Of a DNA stretch of 64,000 nucleotides, positions 24,125-24,212 are shown one piece after another. The position numbers and the translations under genes are program-made. The stretch's first letter is position 1, and each line of letters starts with the position of its first letter. The notes below the pieces were generated by a model that was not told the DNA's origin, searched no databases, and worked only from the letters and a program-made list of their open reading frames with translations. The DNA comes from Escherichia coli (GTDB lineage: Bacteria > Pseudomonadota > Gammaproteobacteria > Enterobacterales > Enterobacteriaceae): the NCBI RefSeq assembly GCF_002854065.1, contig NZ_CP024147.1, one strand, 5' to 3'.

Positions 24125-24212
24125 GTGTCGGATGCGACGCTGACGCGTCTTATCCGACCTACGGGGAGCGCATTTGTAGGCCGGATAAGGCGTTTACGCC
24201 GCATCCGGCACC
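24125..24212. repeat. REP/BIME palindromic elements inside the phn operon (between phnK and phnL)
   Basis: gtcggatgcgacgctgacgcgtcttatccgacctacg and gtaggccggataaggcgtttacgccgcatccggca, classic REP consensus in inverted orientation. Confidence 0.85.

Follow-up and report, generated by a model that had tools for sequence, protein, structure and literature searches.

Intergenic REPs inside polycistronic operons constitute one of the two standard classes in EcoCyc-type catalogues (PMC12306157). According to published work, REPs protect the upstream mRNA from exonucleases, and genome-wide the median log ratio of upstream to downstream expression amounts to 0.96 for REP pairs versus -0.09 for controls (bioRxiv 10.64898/2026.03.23.713779). 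The same study reports that the effects of REPs depend on their context, and that reporters often do not reveal any stabilization. Among the individual systems described, the REP between malE and malF separates the gene for the binding protein from the genes for the membrane components in the operon of an ABC importer (Newbury et al. 1987, as cited in PMC12306157). REP325, which is located between yjdM and yjdN, functions as a leaky, partly Rho-dependent terminator and also as a stabilizer of the upstream RNA (bioRxiv 10.64898/2026.03.23.713779). The RNA produced from REP325 is represented by the Rfam family naRNA4 (RF02564), which in effect is a model of a Y-linker-Z2 REP doublet, and whose proposed role in the nucleoid is disputed. 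Finally, REPINs, the mobile units of REP families, are formed by two inverted copies of one REP.

In this study we analyze two REP doublets inside the phn operon of Escherichia coli, which are located at the junctions between phnD and phnE and between phnK and phnL, respectively. Unless stated otherwise, positions refer to “the window”, i.e., the whole stretch of 64,000 nucleotides (64 kb) of contig NZ_CP024147.1 that was analyzed.

Similar to the malE-malF REP, the phnD-phnE doublet directly follows the gene for a binding protein, phnD, and precedes a permease gene, phnE, on a single transcript, and its hairpin is stable and devoid of a U-tract. In contrast to the mal system, however, the ATPase gene phnC leads the phn operon, and therefore, the protected segment would be phnCD. 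Moreover, in a quarter of the E. coli strains the hairpin at this junction is not a REP. With REP325 the phn sites share the Y and Z2 building blocks, the location between tandem genes and the direction of transcription. Yet, the phn sites are single doublets, whereas REP325 comprises four (here) to six (MG1655) doublets with 23-nt spacers, and the phnD-phnE doublet is inverted with respect to the REP325 units; its best Rfam match lies on the plus strand, rather than on the minus strand as for these units. Like naRNA4, the phnD-phnE doublet matches the full model, including two hairpins and a linker, but this best match is antisense to phn, and the phnK-phnL doublet adopts the opposite, head-to-head arrangement. 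In common with REPINs, both phn sites consist of two inverted REPs 13-16 nt apart that are able to fold as one long hairpin, and their presence is polymorphic between strains as well as species, which is at most an indirect sign of mobilization. Unlike in REPINs, the two units belong to different subtypes (Y and Z2) and are not two copies of one REP.

The REP325 array itself is found at positions 32007-32386 of the window, 2.5 kb upstream of the phnD-phnE junction, where a 100-nt period is repeated 3.8 times and Rfam yields four matches to naRNA4 on the minus strand. MG1655 harbours six units, and its yjdN-yjdM gap is 200 nt longer; thus, the REP325 copy number differs by two units between strains. 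In E. coli TOP10 (locus L001, 17263-18309), the PGAP annotation places two pseudo-CDS over REP325, termed “type III secretion apparatus protein OrgA/MxiK, incomplete” and “hypothetical protein, frameshifted”, which look like spurious calls caused by the repeats. Elsewhere in the window, positions 50885-50915 contain a solitary Y-type REP whose loop is a variant (GGATGCGGCGTGAATTCCTTATCC). It is flanked by a plus-strand ORF that ends at 50795 and by ORFs beginning at 50924-50934, which overlap and are located on both strands. Further Rfam matches in the window correspond to the sRNA STnc630 (38053-38218, plus strand, 181.8 bits) and to the selenocysteine insertion element SECIS_2 (2187-2241, minus strand, 87.1 bits), the latter presumably residing in fdhF.

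Organization of the phn operon

The 14 genes phnCDEFGHIJKLMNOP form an operon on the minus strand (20554-31367), as delineated by ORF coordinates, translations and the RefSeq annotation of 97-100% identical genomes. The annotation of near-identical E. coli genomes agrees with the minus-strand gene map, phnE is intact, and both REP spacers are inside the operon. A preliminary description of this DNA had placed REP pairs at the phnK-phnL and phnD-phnE junctions of a 14-gene phn operon, and both pairs are indeed read in the sequence and recovered as palindromes and pattern matches. The same description had regarded the other junctions as tightly overlapping, which holds for most of them. Judged by the ORF coordinates, 11 of the 13 junctions are tight, phnK-phnL and phnD-phnE being the exceptions, and nine of these 11 either overlap or leave a gap of at most 1 nt. 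Overlaps of 1-14 nt occur at the junctions G-H, H-I, I-J, J-K, L-M, M-N and N-O, while the gap is 0 nt between phnF and phnG and 1 nt between phnO and phnP. The description does not apply to phnC-phnD and phnE-phnF, which are separated by 24 nt and 20 nt, respectively.

The phnK-phnL intercistronic spacer (24106-24215, minus strand; MG1655 4317896-4318005) comprises 110 nt within the phn mRNA and extends from the phnK stop codon (24216-24218) to the phnL start codon (24103-24105). The phnD-phnE spacer (29433-29537, minus strand) comprises 105 nt and is bordered by the phnD stop codon (29538-29540) and the phnE start codon (29430-29432). The Shine-Dalgarno motif of phnL, GAGG, is located at 24112-24115 (minus strand), approximately 11 nt 3' of the hairpin, as apparent from the sequence and from the comparison of alleles.

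Two annotation issues touch upon these spacers. The intact phnE of the window (28653-29432) encodes 259 amino acids, whereas in K-12 derivatives the gene is frameshifted and annotated as a pseudogene. In the MG1655 record, the phnE1 pseudogene starts at a GTG within REP324, the phnD-phnE doublet of that strain (corresponding to a 280-aa ORF at 28653-29495 here; window positions 29433-29495 are equivalent to MG1655 4323231-4323281). PGAP, on the other hand, starts phnE at the ATG at position 29432, which is accompanied by a GGAG Shine-Dalgarno motif, and the longer MG1655 annotation reaching into REP324 is probably a mistake. At the other junction, the phnL frame remains open in the 5' direction across the REP doublet and into phnK, yielding a mechanical ORF of 432 amino acids (23425-24723, minus strand). 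This ORF is an artefact of a stop-free frame and not a gene.

Identity of the REP doublets

The four units read at the two sites match the REP consensus GCC[G/T]GATGCG...CTTATC[C/A]GGCCTAC and form imperfect palindromes of about 35-40 nt. The core pattern GGATGCG-N(8-18)-CTTATCC occurs nine times in the 64-kb window, as compared to 0.00 expected matches. The REP loops are 4 and 6 nt long; a pattern with a fixed 5-nt loop does not retrieve any REP in the window.

The phnK-phnL spacer harbours a Z2-type REP (GTCGGATGCGACGCTGACGCGTCTTATCCGACCTAC) at 24127-24162 on the plus strand, which is inverted in the mRNA, followed by a 13-nt linker and a Y-type REP (TGCCGGATGCGGCGTAAACGCCTTATCCGGCCTAC on the minus strand) at 24176-24210. 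The order is reversed in the phnD-phnE spacer, where a Y-type REP with a private loop variant (GGTGCAAGCACC; 29448-29482, minus strand) is connected by a 16-nt linker to a Z2-type REP (29499-29534, plus strand). Each unit was recognized as a palindrome, as a pattern match and by alignment to naRNA4, the phnK-phnL units aligning to the Z2 and the Y hairpin of the model, respectively. The interval previously given for the phnK-phnL pair, 24125-24212, is therefore right to about 2 nt (units at 24127-24210). The interval 29456-29545, given for the phnD-phnE pair, lies approximately 9 nt too far to the right, and its last 8 nt belong to the 3' end of phnD.

As a whole, the phnD-phnE doublet (29448-29534) is REP324 of MG1655 (4323247-4323333), which is listed as the tandem phnD/phnE REP in the supplement of bioRxiv 10.64898/2026.03.23.713779 and whose coordinates map to about 29449-29535 of the window. 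The doublet scores 69.1 bits against naRNA4 on the plus strand (29451-29531), which exceeds the gathering score of 59.5, and 50.5 bits on the minus strand. The phnK-phnL doublet stays below this gathering score and yields partial matches of 42.7 and 36.4 bits. The Y core of the latter doublet does not differ from the Y cores found in REP325, and a 510-nt query spanning the phnK-phnL junction obtains a median of 25 matches per E. coli genome. Using megablast against E. coli genomes, the phnD-phnE query matches its own locus only, and thus, the units at this junction are diverged private copies.

Both sites show the alternation of inverted Y and Z units with short linkers that defines BIMEs. The IHF consensus WATCAANNNNTTR finds no match with up to one mismatch in 24106-24215 or 29433-29537, and since neither linker contains this consensus, an identity as BIME-1 or RIP was rejected. 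Both doublets combine a Y unit with an inverted Z2 unit and lack an IHF site, a composition of the BIME-2 type. The two sites are also extragenic, transcribed and close to a gene 3' end, as is characteristic of E. coli REPs. The MG1655 record does not contain repeat features in the annotation of its phn region, and a literature search for the phn operon in combination with REP retrieved no paper on these two phn REPs specifically. Taken together, both phn features are genuine, ordinary and already catalogued E. coli REP doublets.

Predicted RNA structure

The REPs closely follow the preceding stop codons in the mRNA, beginning 3 nt past the phnD stop codon and 5-6 nt past the phnK stop codon. 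The distance from the end of the hairpin to the next start codon is 15 nt for phnE and 21 nt for phnL, which leaves space for just the Shine-Dalgarno motif. As minus-strand RNA, the phnK-phnL spacer is predicted to fold with -60.7 kcal/mol (z = -6.5) and the phnD-phnE spacer with -53.0 kcal/mol (z = -4.2). Either spacer may adopt one long Y:Z2 hairpin or two stem-loops, and in the minimum free energy (MFE) structures the Y and Z2 units are paired with each other lengthwise. Hence, as for RNA stabilizers or attenuators, a stable hairpin is co-transcribed between tandem genes at both sites.

A terminator scan of both spacers revealed neither a terminator-like site nor a U-tract (T-tract in the DNA) after the stems, which are followed by ACACCCGAACC and AGACCGGAGCC, respectively. 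An intrinsic, Rho-independent terminator was rejected for both spacers, since no run of U follows the stem. Likewise, a promoter scan found no promoter-like site at either spacer, and a promoter within the spacers was rejected on these grounds.

The phnK-phnL REP alleles of two other E. coli strains (L091/L092 360-469, compared with window 24106-24215) contain substitutions that strengthen the Y stem by replacing a G·U with an A-U pair. The substitutions in these alleles also disrupt base pairing within the long Y:Z2 hairpin (CCUAC to CCGAC). These two substitutions hint at the single REP stem-loops as the conserved fold.

Allelic variation in Escherichia coli

To compare strains, 5,426 complete E. 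coli genomes were searched with short-flank, allele-specific queries, and the locus was recovered from 5,387 of them. At the phnK-phnL junction, 4,839 genomes carry the REP pair and 545 a Box C-like allele of 176 nt, with about three further genomes harbouring other alleles. At the phnD-phnE junction, the REP pair is found in 3,873 genomes and a Box C-like allele in about 1,330, of which 349 contain a two-unit form of 125 nt and the rest mostly a one-unit form of 60-61 nt; approximately 180 genomes harbour other alleles. The preliminary description had proposed a comparison of REP presence across strains. This comparison, now run, indicates that the REPs are not fixed, and that another palindrome is present in about 10% (phnK-phnL) and 25% (phnD-phnE) of the genomes.

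The Box C-like palindrome (CCCTCTCCC...GGGAGAGGG / GGGTGAGGG) belongs to a sequence family that, by comparison of the alleles, is unrelated to REP, and which we take to be the “Box C” of older E. coli repeat catalogues. The element is dispersed in intergenic regions, e.g., in the hrpB-mrcB gap of K-12, and does not occur in the 64-kb window. As alternative alleles, Box C-like palindromes are found at exactly both phn junctions, where their hairpins are as strong as those of the REPs. In the extracted loci, these alleles span positions 401-576 (L003/L004), 401-525 (L005/L008) and 401-460 (L006/L007). The one-unit form at the phnD-phnE junction appears to have arisen from the two-unit form by recombination.

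REP and Box C-like alleles have just 11-18 nt in common, which include the downstream Shine-Dalgarno motif. Nevertheless, the common alleles at both junctions all fold strongly (-24 to -95 kcal/mol). Since 5,384 of the 5,387 genomes carry one of the two hairpin alleles between phnK and phnL, an empty phnK-phnL junction is possible in almost none of them. The phnD-phnE junction harbours a hairpin allele in the genomes apart from the approximately 180 unclassified ones, and the single allele sampled from these (L009) is degenerate and folds weakly. The alleles at the two junctions assort independently. One linked Box C-like haplotype was considered and rejected, as three strains carry the Box C-like element at one junction and the REP at the other.

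The phn junctions in other bacteria

A scan based on PhnK retrieved at least 80 loci, and E. albertii and E. fergusonii are absent among the matches listed. The sizes of the junctions were determined by tblastn and stop-codon extension; outside of the Enterobacteriaceae the starts were estimated from alignments, and therefore, the gaps are approximate and may be some nucleotides off.

Among the matches listed, Enterobacteriaceae with the same 14-gene order preserve the tight junctions as tight, while the phnK-phnL spacer ranges from 7 to 298 nt and the phnD-phnE spacer from 62 to 251 nt. The phnK-phnL junction is empty (7-18 nt), with the Shine-Dalgarno motif directly after the stop codon, in Citrobacter sp. 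FP75, Leclercia, an Enterobacter MAG (L018) and Cedecea neteri, the spacer in Citrobacter and Leclercia being 9 nt long. REPs of a species-specific type occupy the junction in E. cloacae, E. asburiae, Pluralibacter, Kluyvera, C. werkmanii and Cedecea sulfonylureivorans.

On contig QNRL01000011.1 (L010), labelled Pseudocitrobacter faecalis DSM 27453, Box C-like elements are found at both junctions and are expanded to approximately four units. The spacers are located at 8760-9057 (phnK-phnL, 298 nt) and 3292-3542 (phnD-phnE, 251 nt), and PhnK is 99% identical to the E. coli protein. These features suggest that the operon was transferred recently or that the contig is mislabelled.

Across the matches listed, the median length of the phnK-phnL junction is 24 nt; most loci exhibit 7-25 nt without structure, and a fold of -15 kcal/mol or lower is predicted for 17 of 78 loci. 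Several Pseudomonas and Stutzerimonas loci (L056, L057, L062, L065, L082) contain REP-type palindromes of their own in this position, e.g., GTAGGAGCG...CGCTCCTAC, whereas their close relatives have a gap of 8-20 nt. The phnK-phnL junction thus was occupied independently in a distant lineage.

The junction between phnD and phnE presents a different picture. Among the matches listed, which here comprise diverse Proteobacteria, 42 of 43 loci have a gap of 40 nt or more, and the MFE of the gap is -15 kcal/mol or lower in 41 of 43. Normalized per nucleotide, the MFE of the phnD-phnE gaps in the matches listed is -0.40, as compared to -0.12 for those phnC-phnD gaps that are 40 nt or longer (Mann-Whitney p = 7e-8). 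The structured spacer is present even without a recognizable repeat, and hairpins other than REPs occupy it in other genera. Given that the phnD-phnE spacer is structured almost universally and the phnK-phnL spacer usually is short and empty, the former looks like a selected hairpin site and the latter like a permissive landing site.

Expression of the phn genes

Published transcriptomes provide a limited view of the two junctions. In MG1655 grown under phosphate limitation, the log2 fold change of a ΔphoB mutant versus wild type is -3.20 for phnC and -2.05 for phnD, and +1.81 (NA) for phnE_1, -0.65 (NA) for phnF and -1.1 to +0.4 for phnG-phnK (PMC7657598 supplement). Further downstream, the same contrast gives -2.79 for phnL and -2.95 for phnM, with adjusted p values of 0.17-0.18. 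In Pi-replete, uninduced K-12, the DESeq2 baseMean is 118 for phnL versus 32 for phnK (tables of bioRxiv 10.64898/2026.03.23.713779); since the phn operon is off in uninduced cells, these tables were not counted as evidence for attenuation. Overall, the low-count K-12 tables offer weak hints that fit a drop after phnD and not after phnK, and the phnE frameshift is a confounding factor.

In a preprint supplement, a region of NusG-dependent Rho termination is listed that lies antisense to phnD (MG1655 4323405-4323494, plus strand; about 29607-29696 of the window), 72 nt away from REP324. Accordingly, REP324 may bear on antisense transcription too.

Putative role of the hairpins

With moderate confidence, we propose that the phn REP hairpins act as local, leaky punctuation of a polycistronic mRNA. 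As judged from the comparative sequence data, the hairpin between phnD and phnE appears to be under selection irrespective of the repeat family from which it derives, while the hairpin between phnK and phnL is more probably opportunistic. A REP hairpin would block 3'-to-5' exonucleases and thereby protect the upstream segment, i.e., phnCD or phnC-K, respectively. In addition, it may terminate transcription in part, leaving less RNA for the downstream genes. At the phnD-phnE junction, the predicted outcome is an excess of the binding protein PhnD over the permease PhnE and the products of the lyase genes, as in malE-malF. Between phnK and phnL, a mobile palindrome may have inserted opportunistically into a junction that is not translationally coupled, and the effect would be modest at most. 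The earlier notion that intra-operonic REPs serve as mRNA stability barriers is plausible in this regard, as it matches published REP work and the predicted stable hairpins without a U-tract. The two junctions are not equivalent in the comparative data.

A more tentative extension of this proposal regards the phn junctions, phnD-phnE in particular, as evolutionary docking sites, where selection would retain a strong hairpin directly behind the stop codon, regardless of the palindrome family that supplies it. Under this scenario, REP doublets, Box C-like elements, REPs of the Enterobacter or Pseudomonas type and private hairpins would take each other's place, not only from species to species but also among the alleles of E. 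coli.

Selection need not be invoked if both REP pairs are selfish DNA that is neutral to the host. In that case, mobile palindromes such as REPs, REPINs or Box C-like elements might simply pile up at the only junctions that are not locked by overlapping stop and start codons. The variable occupancy between species and among E. coli strains, the unrelated families at the same spots and their independent assortment are all compatible with this explanation, as are the empty phnK-phnL junctions (7-18 nt) of several Enterobacteriaceae with an otherwise identical operon, and the limitation of conservation between alleles to the 11-18 nt around the Shine-Dalgarno motif. A lack of function is more difficult to reconcile with the structured spacer after phnD in 41 of the 43 loci among the matches listed, even where no repeat is recognizable, and with the 5,384 of 5,387 E. 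coli loci that carry one of two phnK-phnL hairpin alleles, a situation mirrored at phnD-phnE apart from the approximately 180 unclassified genomes. Neutral insertion is therefore plausible for phnK-phnL and less so for phnD-phnE, and as an account of both junctions we rate it as possible but on the whole rather unlikely.

The proximity of the hairpins to the stop codons raises the question of whether they act on translation. A REP whose distance to the stop codon is below 16 nt lowers the upstream gene's output (Liang et al. 2015, as summarized in PMC12306157), and at distances of 3 nt (phnD) and 5-6 nt (phnK) both sites fall into this range. A terminating ribosome might thus stall at the REP, and the ensuing mRNA cleavage and trans-translation would reduce the output of PhnD and PhnK. 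Yet, a lower level of PhnD would run contrary to the usual excess of a binding protein over its permease, and also contrary to the RNA-seq hint, based on low counts, that phnCD is the best-expressed part of the operon. We consider ribosome stalling doubtful as the principal function, and note that it is not mutually exclusive with punctuation of the mRNA.

Functions at the level of the DNA appear improbable. BIME-2 elements have been linked to the binding of DNA gyrase, and the Y and Z2 composition without an IHF site would suit sites of gyrase binding or cleavage that relieve supercoiling in a strongly induced 11-kb operon. Alternatively, the doublets might form cruciforms or naRNA-HU contacts that organize the nucleoid, as envisaged by the HU-naRNA4 model (PMC4550694), and the phnD-phnE doublet does score above the Rfam threshold for naRNA4. 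However, a 2026 preprint that shares the author S. Adhya with the 2015 naRNA4 paper found neither nucleoid compaction nor REP-REP contacts (bioRxiv 10.64898/2026.03.23.713779). Moreover, 10-25% of the strains carry Box C-like alleles, and phnD-phnE hairpins other than REPs occur in other genera, which argues that the shape of the hairpin matters rather than the binding of a REP-specific protein.

The hairpin between phnK and phnL might instead protect the RNA downstream, if a phnL-P fragment produced by endonucleolytic cleavage were shielded from 5'-end-dependent decay by its 5' stem-loop, or if an internal promoter were located nearby. The baseMean of phnL exceeds that of phnK in Pi-replete K-12 (118 versus 32), and under low phosphate phnL and phnM respond to the loss of phoB (log2 fold changes of -2.8 and -2.9), as opposed to values of about 0 for phnI-K. 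The counts are low, however, the adjusted p values are 0.17-0.18, and no promoter-like site is predicted near the spacer; as a pure inference, this scenario has little probability.

The preliminary description had assigned to the two REPs a partitioning of phnCDE from the C-P lyase genes, which accords with general REP barrier behaviour but is contradicted by the gene map, since the upstream pair lies between phnD and phnE and thus splits the transporter genes into phnCD (ATPase and binding protein) and phnE (permease) plus all downstream genes, the phnK-phnL pair parts phnG-K from phnL-P, and no REP is present at phnE-phnF or phnF-phnG.

Conclusions

By itself, the presence of two REP doublets in the phn operon matters little, as REPs within operons represent a class described in textbooks, and both of the present ones are catalogued. 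What the comparison adds is the allelic replacement of REP by Box C-like elements at both junctions and the near-universal hairpin after phnD, which we regard as a modestly interesting lead. Since three or more allele classes occur at the same junction in thousands of sequenced strains, the locus represents a natural experiment on REP function. If the junctions indeed are docking sites, the natural exchange of alleles would adjust how much binding protein is made relative to permease and lyase, while leaving promoters and coding sequences untouched. Finally, a conserved regulatory hairpin in the spacer after phnD could account for uneven phn gene expression in work that studies or engineers the C-P lyase pathway.
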